Source: Rickettsiales bacterium (GTDB lineage: Bacteria; Pseudomonadota; Alphaproteobacteria; Rickettsiales; UBA3002). From it: a stretch of 35,087 nt of DNA. The notes beneath the pieces are model-generated. The model saw nothing but the letters and a program-made list of their open reading frames with translations, did not search any database and was not told the DNA's origin. A program made the position numbers and the translations under genes. Below, piece by piece: positions 2,600-33,700 of this stretch (the stretch's first letter is position 1; each line of letters starts with the position of its first letter). The DNA lies in the NCBI GenBank assembly GCA_044225085.1, contig JBGAJE010000001.1, forward strand, positions 1 through 35,087. The letters run 5' to 3'.

Positions 2600-4507
<1,908 letters not shown>

Positions 4508-4520
4508 TGGCGCTGCTGCA

Positions 4521-4572
4521 AGCCCGCACCCAAATCTGCTGCGCAGATTTGACCTCTCCCGCCGGGAGAGGT
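4521..4572. repeat. solo right-end module of the composite palindromic repeat family
   Basis: GCCCGCACCC, then hairpin CAAATCTGC-tgc-GCAGATTTG (4531-4551), then hairpin ACCTCTCCC-gcc-GGGAGAGGT (4552-4572). Same module order as 5014-5065. Begins 14 nt after the thiC stop. Confidence 0.8.
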
Positions 4573-4601
4573 AGAAAGAGGCACCGCATTGCCCCACGGT
4601 C

Positions 4602-4653
4602 ACCTCTCCCACCGGGAGAGGTCTAAATCGCCCTTGCGATTTAGGGTGAGGGC
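4602..4653. repeat. left-end module of the composite palindromic repeat
   Basis: ACCTCTCCC-acc-GGGAGAGGT (4602-4622), CTAAATCG-cccttg-CGATTTAG (4623-4644), GGGTGAGGGC (4644-4653). Stems are identical to 33580-33631 and the loops differ. Confidence 0.85.
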
Positions 4654-4668
4654 TTACAAACTCACCCC

Positions 4669-5067
4669 ATGAAAAAAGCCTACCACAAACCCCCCACCAT
4701 CGACCGCGCTCGAACCTTGCGCGTCACCCGTCCCTCAGTCCAAACACGCCTCTGGCACCACCTCCGCGCCCGCCAACTCGAAGGCTACAAATTCCGCCGT
4801 CAGCACCCCGTCGGCAACTACTTCCTCGACTTCGCCTGTGAGGAATTAAAACTCGCCATCGAGCTTGACGGCGGCCAGCACAACGACCCCGCCCACCAGC
4901 GCTACGATGCCACCCGCACCGCTGCCCTCAAACAATCCGGCTGGCGCTTATTACGTTTTTGGAATAATGAAGTGATGGAAAATATCGAGGGTGTATTGCA
5001 GGTGATTCAGCAAGCCCTCACCCAAAATCCGAAGACGGATTTTGACCTCTCCCGGTGGGAGAGGTAA
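4669..5067 (+). CDS. DUF559 domain protein (Vsr / PD-(D/E)xK-like endonuclease fold)
   Basis: 132-aa ORF with typical DUF559 strings: LWHHLRARQLEGYKFRRQHPVGNYFLDFAC, LAIELDGGQH, WRLLRFWNNEV. The last ~18 codons are encoded by the right-end repeat module. Confidence 0.85.
   Translation: MKKAYHKPPTIDRARTLRVTRPSVQTRLWHHLRARQLEGYKFRRQHPVGNYFLDFACEELKLAIELDGGQHNDPAHQRYDATRTAALKQSGWRLLRFWNNEVMENIEGVLQVIQQALTQNPKTDFDLSRWER
5014..5065. repeat. right-end module of the composite palindromic repeat (inside the 3' end of the DUF559 CDS)
   Basis: GCCCTCACCC (5014-5023), AAAATCCG-aaga-CGGATTTT (5024-5043), ACCTCTCCC-ggt-GGGAGAGGT (5045-5065). This is the inverted order of the modules at 4602-4653. Confidence 0.85.
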
Positions 5068-5108
5068 CGGAGCGAGATTTGTTAAAACACGGGGTGATGA
5101 TTGCGGTA

Positions 5109-5516
5109 TTAGTGACGAATCATTTCAACATAAAGTATTGCAATCATTACTGCAAAACCAGCGACCGCAATCCAGAAAAGTCGCATGCCAGAACCTTTAG
5201 GTAAGATTACTTGATCATAAGTGATATCAGGGTGTTCCTGCAGCTTTTTAAGATTGCTTTTTTGAAAACGCCAACAAGCGGCGTATATAGGTAAAACTAG
5301 AGTATAGATAAGGGCTAATCTGTAAAAATGGAATCCGTGCTGCAATATGTAATGCAAATCCGTTCCAATAGTAATTGCCAAAGAAATAAAAAGACCCCTC
5401 CTCATGTATTTCCAAAATCCACCACGCACTGTTGCTTGCAGAGATAGAATAGCTTTCTCTCGCTTCAGCTGAGCTTGACGTTTAGTTTCTTCGGGATCGA
5501 ATTGGACAGTAAACAT
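5109..5516 (-). CDS. hypothetical small membrane protein (AT-rich ORFan)
   Basis: 135-aa ORF with 3-4 hydrophobic segments. The region is about 40% GC by my hand count (167 G+C in 5101-5520). No family recognised. Confidence 0.5.
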   Translation of the reverse strand: MFTVQFDPEETKRQAQLKREKAILSLQATVRGGFWKYMRRGLFISLAITIGTDLHYILQHGFHFYRLALIYTLVLPIYAACWRFQKSNLKKLQEHPDITYDQVILPKGSGMRLFWIAVAGFAVMIAILYVEMIRH

Positions 5517-5716
5517 GTGGTAATATTATAGATAGGCTGCTGATAAGACAATATGCAAATAGGGTGGAAGTAGAAAACAATGATGGATCTAAAAACATTG
5601 GTATAAACTGCCTGAATTATTGCCCTCATCGGCGCACGCAATAAGTCGGAGCAATAGAGTCCCGCCCCATCATCCACATCGTTTCCTTACACCCCTCATC
5701 TTACACTCCGCTTATG

Positions 5717-5738
5717 TTTACGAAAATGATTTCGTAAA
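5717..5738. promoter_or_regulatory. perfect 9-bp inverted repeat TTTACGAAA-atga-TTTCGTAAA just upstream of the small His/Asp-rich secreted protein gene
   Basis: Read directly. It ends 9 nt before ATG 5747 and 21 nt before ATG 5759. Candidate operator or 5'-UTR hairpin; function unknown. Confidence 0.3.
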
Positions 5739-5746
5739 AACATGAG

Positions 5747-6037
5747 ATGAGAATCCCGATGAAAAAGTTTTTAATGGTGGCCGGTTTAGTGGCGATCAGC
5801 GCAGGGGCGGCCCAGGCGCAGGTGGATGTGGATGTGAATTTGTTCGGCGATCCGCGGCCGGTTTATGTCGAGCAACGTCCCGTTTATGTGGAGCAGCGGC
5901 CGGTCTATTACCGCGAGAATGACCGCGAGCGTCATCGTCATTACGATTGGAGTTATTGGGACCGTGATCGCGATCACGACGATCATCATGATAATGGCCA
6001 TCATTATGGGCGCGACAAAGACGATCATCGCGGCTAG
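5747..6037 (+). CDS. small secreted protein with RPVYVEQ repeats and a His/Asp-rich tail
   Basis: Signal peptide MKKFLMVAGLVAISAGAAQA, so the ATG at 5759 is the likelier start. Has three PVY repeats, the motif ERHRHYDWSYW and the tail DHDDHHDNGHHYGRDKDDHRG. Paralog of 6983..7294. Confidence 0.7.
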   Translation: MRIPMKKFLMVAGLVAISAGAAQAQVDVDVNLFGDPRPVYVEQRPVYVEQRPVYYRENDRERHRHYDWSYWDRDRDHDDHHDNGHHYGRDKDDHRG

Positions 6038-6049
6038 ATTCCGTCGCGT

Positions 6050-6445
6050 ATGATGCAACATCTCGCGACCACGACCAAAACCATTGCCCTCATTGGCGCC
6101 TCCAATAAACCGGAGCGGGCGTCGTATGGCGTCATGGAATTTTTGCTCGCGCGTGGTTATCGCGTTACGCCGGTGAACCCGGGCCTCGCGGGGCAGAGGA
6201 TTCATGGGCAGTTGGTAGTGGCGTCACTGGCCGAGTGCCCCGCGCCCATCGACATGGTCGACATCTTCCGCAACACCGAGGATGCCGCGAAAGTGATCGA
6301 CGAAGCCATCGCGCTGAAAGACAAACTGCAGCTGAAAACCATCTGGTGCCAGCTCGGCGTCACGCCCGTTGAGGCCGCCAAACGCGCGGTGGCGGCAGGC
6401 CTCACCGTGGTGATGGATCACTGCCCCGCCATCGAGTGGGCATAA
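6050..6445 (+). CDS. CoA-binding domain protein (YccU-like)
   Basis: 131-aa ORF. IALIGASNKPERASYGV...GYRVTPVNP...VDIFR pattern typical of the CoA_binding_2 family. Confidence 0.78.
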   Translation: MMQHLATTTKTIALIGASNKPERASYGVMEFLLARGYRVTPVNPGLAGQRIHGQLVVASLAECPAPIDMVDIFRNTEDAAKVIDEAIALKDKLQLKTIWCQLGVTPVEAAKRAVAAGLTVVMDHCPAIEWA

Positions 6446-6982: not shown

Positions 6983-7294
6983 ATGAGTACGCAAACCAGC
7001 GTGGAGAAAATTATGAAAAAGCTAGCAATCCTTCTTGGTGTGATGGCTGTTGTCGGGGCAACCTCGGCGGCGGAAGCGCGCACCAACATCAGTGTCGGTT
7101 TTGGTGTGCCGGCACCGGTTTATTATGAACCAGCACCGGTTTATTATCGGCCGGTTTATTCACCGCCGGTTTATTACGGCCCGTCCTACATCTACTATAA
7201 TACCGGATGGGAACGTCACCGGAATTACAATTGGGGCTATTGGCATGATCGCGGTTACTACGACCGTGATTATGACCGTGGCTGGCACCGCTAG
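6983..7294 (+). CDS. small secreted protein with PVYY repeats and a YNWGYW motif (paralog of 5747..6037)
   Basis: Signal peptide MKKLAILLGVMAVVGATSAAEA (the ATG at 7013 may be the true start). Has four P-V-Y-Y type repeats and ERHRNYNWGYWHDRGYYDRDYDRGWHR. Confidence 0.7.
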   Translation: MSTQTSVEKIMKKLAILLGVMAVVGATSAAEARTNISVGFGVPAPVYYEPAPVYYRPVYSPPVYYGPSYIYYNTGWERHRNYNWGYWHDRGYYDRDYDRGWHR

Positions 7295-33579: not shown

Positions 33580-33700
33580 ACCTCTCCCTTGGGAGAGGTC
33601 TAAATCGGCGCAGACGATTTAGGGTGAGGGCTCTCCTCGGGCATTGGCGGGCCCTCACCCTGCTCGCAAGGGCTCGCAGACCTCTCCCGATGGGAGAGGT
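33580..33700. repeat. cargo-less copy of the composite palindromic repeat
   Basis: ACCTCTCCC-tt-GGGAGAGGT (33580-33599), CTAAATCG-gcgcaga-CGATTTAG (33600-33622), GGGTGAGGGC (33622-33631), 19-nt loop, GCCCTCACCC (33651-33660), 19 nt, ACCTCTCCC-gat-GGGAGAGGT (33680-33700). It fills the gap between the convergent NUDIX and rnd stops. Confidence 0.85.

Follow-up and report, generated by a model that had tools for sequence, protein, structure and literature searches.

A DUF559 nuclease gene enclosed by BoxC/PIT/TMECO-like repeats: a conserved, polymorphic unit across bacterial phyla

The locus and its repeat modules

The window, a stretch of 35,087 nucleotides at the start of contig JBGAJE010000001.1 (assembly GCA_044225085.1) from a Rickettsiales bacterium, carries beyond thiC a small DUF559 endonuclease gene enclosed by two inverted repeat modules (Table 1). 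A Pfam scan of five ORFs (1488-2660 and 2609-6445) identified mutY, thiC, DUF559, an unknown ORF and a CoA-binding protein, with no methyltransferase gene among them, and an Rfam scan of the locus returned no intron, known RNA family or riboswitch.

A repeat search showed the two ends to be a 68-nt inverted repeat with 82% complementarity, longer than the modules given in a preliminary description of this DNA, whose coordinates and sequences for both ends, arms, hairpins and ORF were otherwise all correct, as was its account of a gene-less copy with arms 19 nt apart. The left end comprises a hairpin, H1, formed from a C-block and a G-block (ACCTCTCCC-acc-GGGAGAGGT, 4602-4622); a variable hairpin, H2 (4623-4644), standing where a second loop of 3 nt is usual; and a mirror G-block that is also the arm (GGGTGAGGGC, 4644-4653), with the triple ACCTCTCC/GGAGAGGT/GGGTGAGG scoring as a triplex motif in a motif scan. 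The ORF terminates within the right module, which encodes its final ~18 codons and stop, the arm itself supplying codons A-L-T. The two arms lie 360 nt apart, the H2 hairpins of the two ends differ from each other, and the length of the element falls within the 414-657 bp range of 56 related loci.

The H1 pattern, ACCTCTCCC-N2-3-GGGAGAGGT, with a stem of 9 bp in each case, is found at 4602, 5045, 4552, 33580 and 33680; four copies were counted against 0.00 expected, the fifth, at about 33580, having a 2-nt loop. The exact 10-nt arm occurs in the window only at 4644 and 33622 on the forward strand, and at 5014 and 33651 on the reverse. Folded computationally as single-stranded DNA, each module yields a pair of neighbouring 9-bp hairpins (z-scores -5.5 to -7.2). 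A solo module, overlooked in the preliminary description, begins 15 nt past the thiC stop and stands tail-to-tail with the left end of the loaded element, 29 nt away. As a search of the left end for a sigma-70-like promoter found none, the DUF559 gene is probably co-transcribed with thiC.

Table 1. Features of the repeat-associated DUF559 locus and of the gene-less copy in the window
Feature	Position	Strand	Remarks
Lineage-specific segment, thiC to CoA-binding-protein gene	4508-6079		Solo module, loaded element and AT-rich stretch
Solo module, right-hand type	4522-4572	-	Arm variant GCCCGCACCC, own H2, then H1
Complete loaded element (DUF559 gene between left and right inverted ends)	4599-5068	+	470 bp, inverted repeat
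Left inverted end, triplex-type module	4599-4666	+	H1, H2 and mirror G-block/arm
DUF559 (YcjD-family, Vsr-like PD-(D/E)xK) endonuclease gene	4669-5067	+	132 aa; Pfam
Right inverted end	5001-5068	-	Arm GCCCTCACCC 5014-5023, H2' 5024-5043, H1 5045-5065
Gene-less (empty) doublet	33580-33700		Left module 33580-33631, spacer 19 nt, right module 33651-33700

The enclosed nuclease

DUF559 (PF04480; E=1.1e-38, residues 12-117) is the sole domain of the encoded protein, which also matches PDB 3HRL (E=2.6e-26) and is 49% identical to E. coli YcjD. Every residue invariant in the family by alignment column is present (E65, D67, G68-G69, Q70, H71, D80, R83 and R96-F97-W98-N99), and the full-length gene looks intact. 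In an AF2 model the core has pLDDT above 85, falling from 58 to 40 over residues 121-132, and the C-terminal tail encoded by the right module is predicted to be disordered. Foldseek with this model returned 3HRL first, followed by the catalytic domain of I-Bth0305I (PDB 3R3P; profile E=4.9e-4; Foldseek E=3.9e-4, TM 0.73), one of the EDxHD/Vsr-like homing endonucleases (PMC3239194), which by profile and by fold is the closest characterised relative. Fold and catalytic residues are likewise those of Vsr. VsrA of Caulobacter, which contains a DUF559 domain, damages DNA in vivo, is SOS-induced and is functionally tied to a cytosine methyltransferase (PMC12907096), and in Legionella repeated segments containing DUF559 are recombination hotspots (PMC12308824).

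Several features of the locus would suit a once-mobile unit that is now decaying or domesticated here, with the gene perhaps serving another role: the inverted ends are only 82% complementary, their H2 hairpins differ, and a promoter-like site was not found. The complete set of invariant residues in a full-length ORF and the high-confidence core of the model argue against such a relic, which we consider improbable, as does the size of the family, which at 50% identity numbers 26,668 clusters with E<=1e-3 and 11,450 with E<=1e-10, many of its members being intact.

Identity of the repeat

BoxC/PIT/TMECO motifs have been catalogued from the early 1990s onward, their literature reportedly including Bergler 1992, Bachellier 1999, and Hoyne and Maher 2000. 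In the consensus, a C-rich 9-mer pairs with a G-rich 9-mer (CCCTCNCCC N3-6 GGGNGAGGG), and a third, G-rich block mirrors the second, with A to T allowed (GGGNGAGGG). The preliminary description had treated the window repeat as an undescribed type with REP kinship; this view had to be abandoned, as by sequence the repeat belongs with these known intrastrand-triplex motifs (PMC4666352), as a variant rather than a canonical member.

The likeness lies in the three-block logic (C-rich block, complementary G-rich block, mirror G-rich block) and a shared core (CCTCTCCC / GGGAGAGG / GGGTGAGGG): window H1 agrees with the consensus core at 8 of 9 positions, and the mirror block is present as GGGTGAGGGC at 4644 and 33622, and as its complement at 5014 and 33651. 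In intergenic DNA both kinds of repeat are found singly or in tandem inverted pairs, and both are widespread in Proteobacteria and beyond. They differ in the second loop, which has 3 nt in the consensus, whereas the window family has a 20-26-nt variable hairpin, and in the DUF559 gene that the window carries between two motifs, published work having found no gene associated with the motifs. The 135 modules compared contain 117 different H2 sequences, whose median stem measures 8 bp versus 2.4 in shuffles. Across 73 loci the three blocks covary (CCCTCTCC/GGAGAGGG/GGGTGAGG, CCCTCCCC/GGGGAGGG/GGGTGGGG, CCTTCCCC/GGGGAAGG/GGATGGGG), and thus both the hairpin and the mirror third strand are preserved.

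The E. coli motif, TMECO, forms an intrastrand triplex in vitro by CD and NMR, the NMR data supporting a triplex and arguing against a quadruplex (Holder et al. 2015, PMC4666352). A G-quadruplex interpretation of the G-runs in the window was dropped, the third block obeying the mirror rule of purine-motif triplexes. A conserved hairpin mismatch was also considered as a Vsr-like cue and rejected: the G.A mismatch, though common in the E. coli motifs, is seldom seen in others (8/106). The same authors counted the motifs 3,610 times across 262 proteobacterial genomes, never saw a transposase or integrase near them, and termed their origin and spread unclear (PMC4666352).

The unit across bacterial phyla

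Gene and inverted ends form a conserved unit across bacterial phyla. Flanking inverted repeats score at least 20 in 56/74 homolog loci, compared with 14 or less in shuffles, and triplex-type modules, counted only when in the correct orientation, lie upstream of the gene at 59, downstream at 65 and on both sides at 55 of 73 testable DUF559 loci from many phyla, against a background of 0.11 per kb in the same loci and a rate of 1 per 290 kb once sequences are shuffled. Two expectations of the preliminary description, that other DUF559 genes would have like flanks and that modules would be enriched beside them, were thereby borne out. Convergent module pairs 250-600 nt apart enclose DUF559 in 68/70 cases, those less than 250 nt apart in 0/119; DUF559 is essentially the only cargo of paired modules. 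Some loci sit less comfortably with an element mobilised by its own nuclease: about a quarter have no detectable motif on one side, and in the Deinococcus and Synechocystis copies the bracketing motifs have opposite polarity. Motif type, too, follows the protein tree only in part, which weighs against the same reading and led us to drop the idea that the two co-evolved strictly.

Gene-less modules far outnumber DUF559 genes. In metagenomes, at least 120 stretches contain a window-type module, with a DUF559 gene in only 6 and adjacent in only 3; the doublet is the common form, 82/135 metagenome modules having a partner arm within 120 nt, mostly at 20-29 nt. Genomes hold tens of unoccupied doublets and usually one DUF559 gene, with one copy in most replicons. 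Many empty-doublet spacers are themselves palindromic, and the idea that they are deletion remnants of a loaded copy was set aside, no similarity being apparent by eye. Target-site duplication was sought at 56 loci, where no consistent one emerged, direct repeats at the flanks reaching no greater length than in shuffled controls; the 15-18-nt direct repeat of two loci (L013, L079) seems to reflect duplication of a gene's end and start at one insertion. Plasmids and phages were rejected as carriers, the gene being rare there: phage records number 3 and plasmid records 28, most of the latter being chromids or mislabelled chromosomes.

This rarity, together with a single-copy gene inherited vertically within genera and the methyltransferase tie and SOS induction of Caulobacter VsrA (PMC12907096), would fit a housekeeping nuclease of Vsr-type mismatch or structure repair, as proposed for VsrA, near which motifs accumulate or travel as insulating or regulatory elements. 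We judge this very improbable. Chance accumulation at the background density cannot give the observed two-sided, correctly oriented loci, nor place the right arm within the last codons, and a repair role leaves several things unaccounted for: the bracketing repeats, the entry of the complete unit into unrelated genes in frame and, described below, the element-only homology between phyla and the two copies in one genome. The five ORFs examined around the element include no evident cytosine methyltransferase gene, and the motifs had no promoter or terminator activity in the earlier work of Maher and colleagues, according to Holder et al. (PMC4666352).

Presence, absence and duplication of the unit

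Orthologous sites differ in whether they hold the unit. In three close relatives (L206-L208), loci of ~7.9 kb contain no DUF559 gene and no repeat motif at all; blastn homology to the window ends at 4503-4507 in L206-L209 and restarts, at 6080, only in the pair of loci with the CoA-binding gene (L206 and L207), other genes taking the place of the 4508-6079 segment in the close relatives. Elsewhere the unit lies upstream of thiC in one relative and in frame inside thiC in three, the ThiC insertion point being identical in L030, P0225 and P0233. The thiC 3' flank is thus not strictly syntenic, in keeping with the mobility suggested in the preliminary description.

The unit can also be duplicated within a genome: two loci of one MAG (L025 and L058) are 91.5% identical over 599 nt in unrelated flanks. 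Between a deltaproteobacterial locus (L044) and one from Dadabacteria (L071), 80% identity is confined to the element. Syntenic copies recur within genera and families (five in Dyella, three in Xanthomonadaceae, three in Sideroxydans/Nitrosomonadales), and the DUF559 gene being usually single-copy and vertically inherited within genera, recent movement must be rare, which weighs against an actively spreading element.

In related loci the unit has entered thiC, hsdS, hsdM, priA and methylase genes in frame. Restriction-modification genes are over-represented as hosts, a further point in favour of a domesticated relic, for which a restriction-modification-linked role may be envisaged because the unit often resides in hsdS and methylase genes. 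The insertion point in hsdS, in its central conserved region, is common to Nitrospira, Binatia and Gammaproteobacteria, and there the flanking hsdS DNA is 82-91% similar versus 76-79% for the element. In two loci (L045, L068) the host gene of the loaded copy also bears in-frame gene-less modules.

These recurrent hsdS and ThiC sites, the doubly marked host genes and flanks more similar than the element favour a free-standing DUF559 homing endonuclease gene that copies only itself into pre-existing doublets or conserved genes, the modules being short homology arms for break repair and the doublets spreading by some other process. The position of the ORF exactly between the arms, the lack of target-site duplication and the kinship with a homing endonuclease point the same way, and selfish-gene contexts are common to DUF559 and I-Bth0305I, which share the Vsr-like catalytic core, E65, D67, H71 and D80 being invariant in DUF559. 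Even so, we regard such a homing-only parasite as rather unlikely. Efficient homing should fill the doublets, whereas tens stay unoccupied for what is usually one gene; the homology arms are short, at 35-70 bp; and the small protein lacks the N-terminal NUMOD/HTH DNA-binding region of I-Bth0305I. The unit differs from that enzyme's setting further in having no intron or intein, and in placing its gene in a dispersed repeat rather than a single conserved target.

The E. coli counterpart

BoxC was reportedly first described beside envM/fabI, which neighbours ycjD. On the 3' side of ycjD, a hairpin overlaps the stop codon and a full BoxC-like motif follows ~170 nt downstream, with a duplicated fragment of the ycjD 3' end between the two. 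There is no motif upstream of the gene, contrary to what a nuclease-driven element would lead one to expect, and ycjD is therefore only a partial second example; loss of the upstream motif and the partial duplicate alongside are as a relic would have them.

Among sampled chromosomes, matching places number 11-28 (median 17) with ycjD and 1-23 (median 3) without it. This difference speaks for the nuclease as the agent of spread, but the correlation is confounded by phylogeny, and some ycjD- lineages retain 11-23 motifs, which tells against it. The ycjD+ lineages are nevertheless richer in motifs overall, not merely in occupied ones, which is at odds with homing alone. Published counts, as read off, are 13-30 in A/B1-type strains and 1-2 in B2 (PMC4666352 supplement), the phylogroup distribution of ycjD being taken from PMC12817139. 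K-12, with ycjD and 23 motifs, and B2 strains, with no ycjD and no more than 1-2 motifs, make a convenient test system.

Relation to known mobile repeats and elements

Similar in organisation are the REPIN/RAYT systems (REPtrons), in which a usually single-copy, largely vertical gene is flanked by inverted short hairpin repeats that are dispersed genome-wide as gene-less inverted doublets without target-site duplication, and which E. coli lineages lacking the gene have in smaller numbers. In contrast to these systems, the ORF bracketed here encodes a hydrolytic Vsr-like PD-(D/E)xK nuclease (DUF559 only) rather than an HUH/Y1 transposase, the window module ends lack the GTAG/CGTC tag, the repeats add a third, triplex-forming block, and the unit also enters protein-coding genes in frame.

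MITEs and their parent insertion sequences similarly combine terminal inverted repeats around a single small gene with far commoner gene-less short copies that have identical ends, but the DUF559 unit has no DDE, serine or tyrosine transposase, produces no target-site duplication, and its gene-less spacers are not obvious deletion remnants. Rickettsia palindromic elements (RPEs) are short palindromic repeats lying in frame in protein genes and translated as extra peptide segments, and insertions of this kind are seen in related loci, some from Rickettsiales-labelled MAGs; RPEs, however, carry no gene, have no known associated enzyme and belong to a different sequence family.

Interpretation and significance

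The window appears to hold a gene-carrying member of the BoxC/PIT/TMECO family, a unit of ~470 bp ended by two inverted modules with a Vsr-like DUF559 endonuclease as sole cargo, and from the conserved, polymorphic and sometimes duplicated association we infer that this nuclease is the family's own enzyme and acts on the repeats, a combined reading to which we give slightly less than an even chance. The nuclease would recognise the folded or duplex module and nick or cut there, probably reading shape rather than exact sequence, because covarying changes keep both hairpin and mirror third block intact. Host repair and replication would then copy the unit or its doublets, without target-site duplication, in a relation that may resemble that of a single-copy RAYT gene with its REPINs. 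To our knowledge, strand transfer is impossible for a hydrolytic nuclease, which is a difficulty for the spread of doublets to new sites.

On a broader view, DUF559 nucleases and BoxC/PIT/TMECO motifs could together represent an unrecognised class of prokaryotic mobile element, in which a ~120-aa hydrolytic Vsr-like nuclease, through shape recognition of hairpin- or triplex-forming ends and host repair, spreads the gene that encodes it together with gene-less doublets by the hundred, certain insertions falling in frame in protein genes, notably restriction-modification specificity genes; this we hold to be possible, if doubtful. If true, both the origin of BoxC/PIT and the function of a family exceeding 10,000 sequence clusters would have an explanation.

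The repeat family was known; its pairing with DUF559, general across phyla, appears to be new, and as the preliminary description had supposed, no formal account of it was found in the open-access literature. The pairing makes the DUF559 nuclease the first concrete candidate for what spreads or maintains BoxC/PIT/TMECO repeats, and offers a testable explanation for both the origin of the repeats and the role of DUF559, including E. coli YcjD. Should the nuclease prove to act on such structures, an element with only a PD-(D/E)xK enzyme would join the known kinds of mobile DNA, the extra peptide segments of many annotated proteins would be explained, and a small structure-specific nuclease would become available as a tool.

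The DUF559 element in the window

The preliminary description placed a DUF559 gene between two composite palindromic ends, each a module of one hairpin (H1), a second hairpin (H2) and an arm, and the sequence reads exactly so; H1 pairs a C-block with a G-block, which the arm mirrors. The symmetry is present, but it extends further than was proposed, a repeat search of the window returning an inverted repeat of 68 nt, 82% complementary (4599–4666 against 5001–5068). The arms lie 360 nt apart, and in the ORF Pfam recognises a complete DUF559 domain (E=1.1e-38). Four matches to the H1 pattern were counted in the window where none is expected by chance, and a fifth copy with a 2-nt loop lies at 33581; the exact arm is found only at 4644, 5014, 33622 and 33651. 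On folding as single-stranded DNA, each module forms two adjacent 9-bp hairpins (z-scores −5.5 to −7.2). The gene-less doublet of two inverted modules at 33580–33700 is real, with 19 nt between its arms. All modules initially listed are genuine, but a third, solo module had been overlooked at 4522–4572, 15 nt past the thiC stop and tail-to-tail with the left end of the gene-carrying element.

Parts of the gene-carrying element, in window coordinates
Feature	Position	Sequence or remark
H1 hairpin, left end	4602–4622	ACCTCTCCC-acc-GGGAGAGGT
H2 hairpin, left end	4623–4644	
Arm, left end	4644–4653	GGGTGAGGGC
Right end	5014–5065	three parts of the left end in inverted order
DUF559 ORF	4669–5067	fills the inter-arm space; ends inside the right module

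The region 3′ of the element (5068–6049) is AT-rich (GC 0.37–0.45, against ~0.6 elsewhere), and contains a minus-strand ORF of 135 aa without a Pfam match (5109–5516) and, at 5619–5652, a 34-nt, 82% identical copy of the 5′ end of the CoA-binding gene (6083–6116), suggesting a local rearrangement or foreign insertion. Two small ORFs, 5747–6037 (96 aa) and 6983–7294 (103 aa), share N-termini that resemble signal peptides by eye, PVYY-type proline/tyrosine repeats, and His-, Asp- and Arg-rich tails; the two appear to be paralogues.

Identity of the repeat

Each module comprises a C-rich block, a complementary G-rich block, and a third G-rich block mirroring the second with A replaced by T. This is the architecture called BoxC in E. 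coli, and later PIT (potential intrastrand triplex) and TMECO, so that the repeat is a variant of a published family and not, as first thought, of an undescribed type; nor is it a REP. The published consensus is CCCTCNCCC N3-6 GGGNGAGGG N3 GGGNGAGGG (Holder et al. 2015, PMC4666352). The same study counted 23 copies in MG1655, with inverted tandem pairs at five of the sites, and 3,610 across 262 proteobacterial genomes. It found that the single strand forms a triplex in vitro, and reported elevated genetic variability around the motifs, whose origin “remains unclear” and near which a transposase or integrase is “never” found (PMC4666352). The window modules depart from this consensus in one respect, the H2 hairpin replacing the 3-nt second loop. 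Among 135 listed modules of the window subtype (130 from metagenomic and viral contigs, five from the window), H2 takes 117 different sequences and its stem is nearly always formed (median 8 bp versus 2.4 in shuffles); H2 is conserved in structure, not in sequence.

Bracketing of DUF559 genes across bacteria

Scanning a DUF559 alignment against one genome per species gave 593 relatives, of which the best 80 loci were kept, with hosts in the Alpha-, Beta-, Gamma-, Delta- and Zetaproteobacteria, Nitrospira, Binatia, Bdellovibrionota, Gastranaerophilales, Dadabacteria, Anaerolineae and Myxococcota. When the 200 nt upstream were compared with the reverse complement of the 200 nt downstream, 56 of 74 loci scored at least 20, and shuffles never scored above 14. 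A three-block detector was run on 73 testable loci including the window. Of these, 59 have a motif in the correct orientation on the upstream side, 65 have one on the downstream side and 55 have both, against a background of 0.11 per kb in the remainder of the same loci and 1 in 290 kb of shuffled sequence. Gene and ends form a conserved unit, bracketed in an orientation-specific manner, and the blocks covary (CCCTCTCC/GGAGAGGG/GGGTGAGG; CCCTCCCC/GGGGAGGG/GGGTGGGG; CCTTCCCC/GGGGAAGG/GGATGGGG; CACTCCCC/GGGGAGTC/CGGTGGGG), their joint changes preserving the hairpin as well as the mirrored third strand. Across all fetched loci the spacing of convergent motif pairs is bimodal: none of the 101 pairs less than 60 nt apart has DUF559 inside, and 68 of the 70 pairs 250–600 nt apart enclose DUF559, which is in practice their sole cargo.

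The S. meliloti gene is a clean bracketed copy, and the Deinococcus and Synechocystis copies show bracketing of opposite polarity. Cyanobacterial genes on Picosynechococcus PCC 7002 pAQ6 (L211) and a Synechocystis B12 plasmid (L215) adjoin or split DUF1156 methylase genes, as in locus L068, and the Picosynechococcus flanks carry a shorter form, CCCC/GGGG/GGGGG, outside the detector's scoring. One homologue of 231 aa (P0002) has two DUF559 domains in tandem, followed by a repeat-derived tail (…NPLPLDGGGMGRG). Many others (P0005, P0009, P0011, P0014, P0026 and P0053 among them) end in ...ALTRNHEG, which, back-translated by hand from the protein, would give the arm GCCCTCA closely followed by its complement TGAGGGC; the right end would then be laid out differently at these loci.

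Gene-less copies

When metagenome contigs were searched for exact matches to the module pattern of the window subtype, at least 120 stretches were returned, and those listed, together with two viral contigs, hold 130 modules. With the window's five included, 61% of the 135 listed modules are paired with an inverted arm no more than 120 nt away, usually at 20–29 nt. A DUF559 gene is present in only six of the listed loci, and in only three of them does it directly adjoin a module, showing that gene-less doublets vastly outnumber gene-carrying units. Two IMG/VR contigs classed as viral (L081 and L082) each carry one window-type module and no DUF559 gene.

Mobility and insertion sites

Two loci of one Caulobacterales MAG (L025 and L058) are 91.5% identical across 599 nt, comprising the gene and ~140 nt on each side, and have unrelated flanks; a deltaproteobacterial and a Dadabacteria locus share 80% identity confined to the element. 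The unit is found both duplicated within a genome and shared between phyla. A housekeeping repair nuclease with hitch-hiking repeats, a less likely interpretation, leaves this element-only homology unexplained, together with the geometry of the bracketing.

The closest ThiC relatives (88–90% amino acid identity) retain gltA-mutY-thiC synteny. DNA homology with the window ends at the thiC stop (4503–4507) in all four. In the two that have a CoA-binding gene (L206 and L207) it returns at 6080, inside that gene. Three of the four have neither DUF559 gene nor motif in their ~7.9-kb loci, and the fourth (L209) has a unit upstream of thiC; the window's own site is polymorphic for presence of the unit. 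In more distant relatives (L030, 8135–10453; P0225; P0233) the entire unit lies in frame in ThiC, after ...SQEVR(D/E)FA, in proteins of 745–792 aa whose repeat ends are translated as PSP/GEG-rich linkers. Taken with the upstream unit of L209 and the downstream unit of the window, these insertions mark the surroundings of thiC as a recurring location for the unit in this alphaproteobacterial group.

Further in-frame hosts are hsdS (L012, L020, L023, L043, L067), hsdM (L039), priA, a large N6-methylase and a DUF1156 methylase (methylases in L045 and L068), with extra gene-less modules at times translated within the same ORF. The hsdS insertion occupies an identical position in five taxa, spanning Nitrospira, Binatia and Gammaproteobacteria. 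By our count, ~40% of the best 150 family representatives are long proteins with DUF559 embedded internally, and ten examined (within P0253–P0328) included six HsdS, one Type ISP and one Eco57I-type enzyme, the last with two DUF559 copies. Restriction-modification specificity and methylase genes are strikingly over-represented among in-frame hosts.

No consistent target-site duplication was found across the element loci compared. In L013 and L079 the element lies between direct repeats of 15–18 nt, GAGGTGGAC(C/A)GGTGA, duplicating the upstream gene's stop and the downstream gene's ribosome-binding and start region, the sole case resembling a long target duplication. The unit is mostly single-copy per replicon, rare on plasmids and phages, and syntenic in five Dyella species, three Xanthomonadaceae and three Nitrosomonadales/Sideroxydans genomes, which argues against frequent movement.

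The enzyme

All family-invariant residues are present in the window protein. The gene is intact, which contradicts the reading as a decaying relic, again a less likely one. The one solved structure close in sequence is 3HRL, an uncharacterised N. gonorrhoeae protein, followed in the profile search by 3R3P, the catalytic domain of the homing endonuclease I-Bth0305I (E=4.9e-4), with Vsr behind (E=0.15). Foldseek gave the same order (3HRL, 3R3P at E=3.9e-4 and TM 0.73, then Vsr-like folds). The AlphaFold model has a mean pLDDT of 82.5, above 85 in the core and falling from 58 to 40 in the C-terminal tail encoded by the right end. The only in vivo family data found concern Caulobacter VsrA, a DUF559-domain protein that causes an SOS response upon cytosine methyltransferase deletion (PMC12907096); separately, in Legionella experimental evolution, repeated transposase/DUF559 segments act as recombination hotspots (PMC12308824). 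The preliminary description knew of no formal account of the pairing, and the open-access papers searched included none linking DUF559, YcjD, PF04480 or COG2852 to BoxC, PIT, TMECO, REP or MITE.

E. coli ycjD

In K-12 the homologue is ycjD, which shares 49% identity with the window protein. Its 3′ side has a BoxC-like hairpin overlapping the stop codon and, ~170 nt further downstream, a full motif; the upstream side has none. BoxC was reportedly first described beside envM (fabI), the gene adjoining ycjD. Between hairpin and full motif (4240–4420 of the K-12 locus, L203) is a duplicated ycjD 3′-end fragment (…GAGACGGTGCTGGAGAATATTC…), apparently left over from either a second copy or a rearrangement.

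Phylogroups A, B1 and C, together with ST69 and ST182, carry the gene between fabI and sapF, and other lineages have the eefRABCD operon at this position (PMC12817139), as confirmed in CFT073 and O157:H7. The K-12-type locus occurs in 3,346–3,377 of 5,426 complete E. coli genomes. Grouped here by phylogroup, published motif counts are 13–30 in the A/B1-type strains considered, 1–2 in B2 strains, 15 in UMN026, 10–11 in O157 and O55, 12–13 in strain 042, and 6–7 in IAI39 and SMS-3-5 (PMC4666352). In an evenly spaced sample of chromosomes, queried with ycjD joined to the motif, those with ycjD (n=35) had 11–28 matching places (median 17, ycjD locus included), and those without (n=21) had 1–23 (median 3), bimodally at 1–3 and 11–15 with one at 23. 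Motifs clearly persist without ycjD. The direction fits a gene-dependent repeat population decaying after gene loss, in a comparison confounded by phylogeny; decay in the same direction has been described for REPINs after RAYT loss.

Mechanism and significance

We tentatively favour, at slightly short of an even chance, a relationship like that of a RAYT gene and its REPINs, in which the DUF559 nuclease would act on the modules, recognising their shape, and copying would then fall to host repair or replication, since a hydrolytic PD-(D/E)xK enzyme cannot join strands. The main rival, which we consider unlikely, is a free-standing homing endonuclease gene for which pre-existing doublets and conserved genes such as hsdS would be landing sites, the doublets spreading by other means. 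Relatedness to I-Bth0305I and insertion at identical points within hsdS and within thiC speak for homing, but many doublets are unoccupied and the E. coli motif counts run against it.

The repeat is one variant within a family already described, and the protein falls in a catalogued domain family without assigned function; the novelty appears to lie in their association, in the type of enzyme and in the triplex-type ends. REPIN/RAYT systems, homing endonuclease genes and MITE/IS pairs follow similar logic, but the DUF559 unit lacks the Y1 transposase that defines the first, the intron or intein of the second, and the target-site duplication of the third. That it constitutes a distinct class of mobile element is possible, if doubtful. 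A long-standing repeat puzzle and a large family of unknown function have thereby become directly testable in E. coli K-12.
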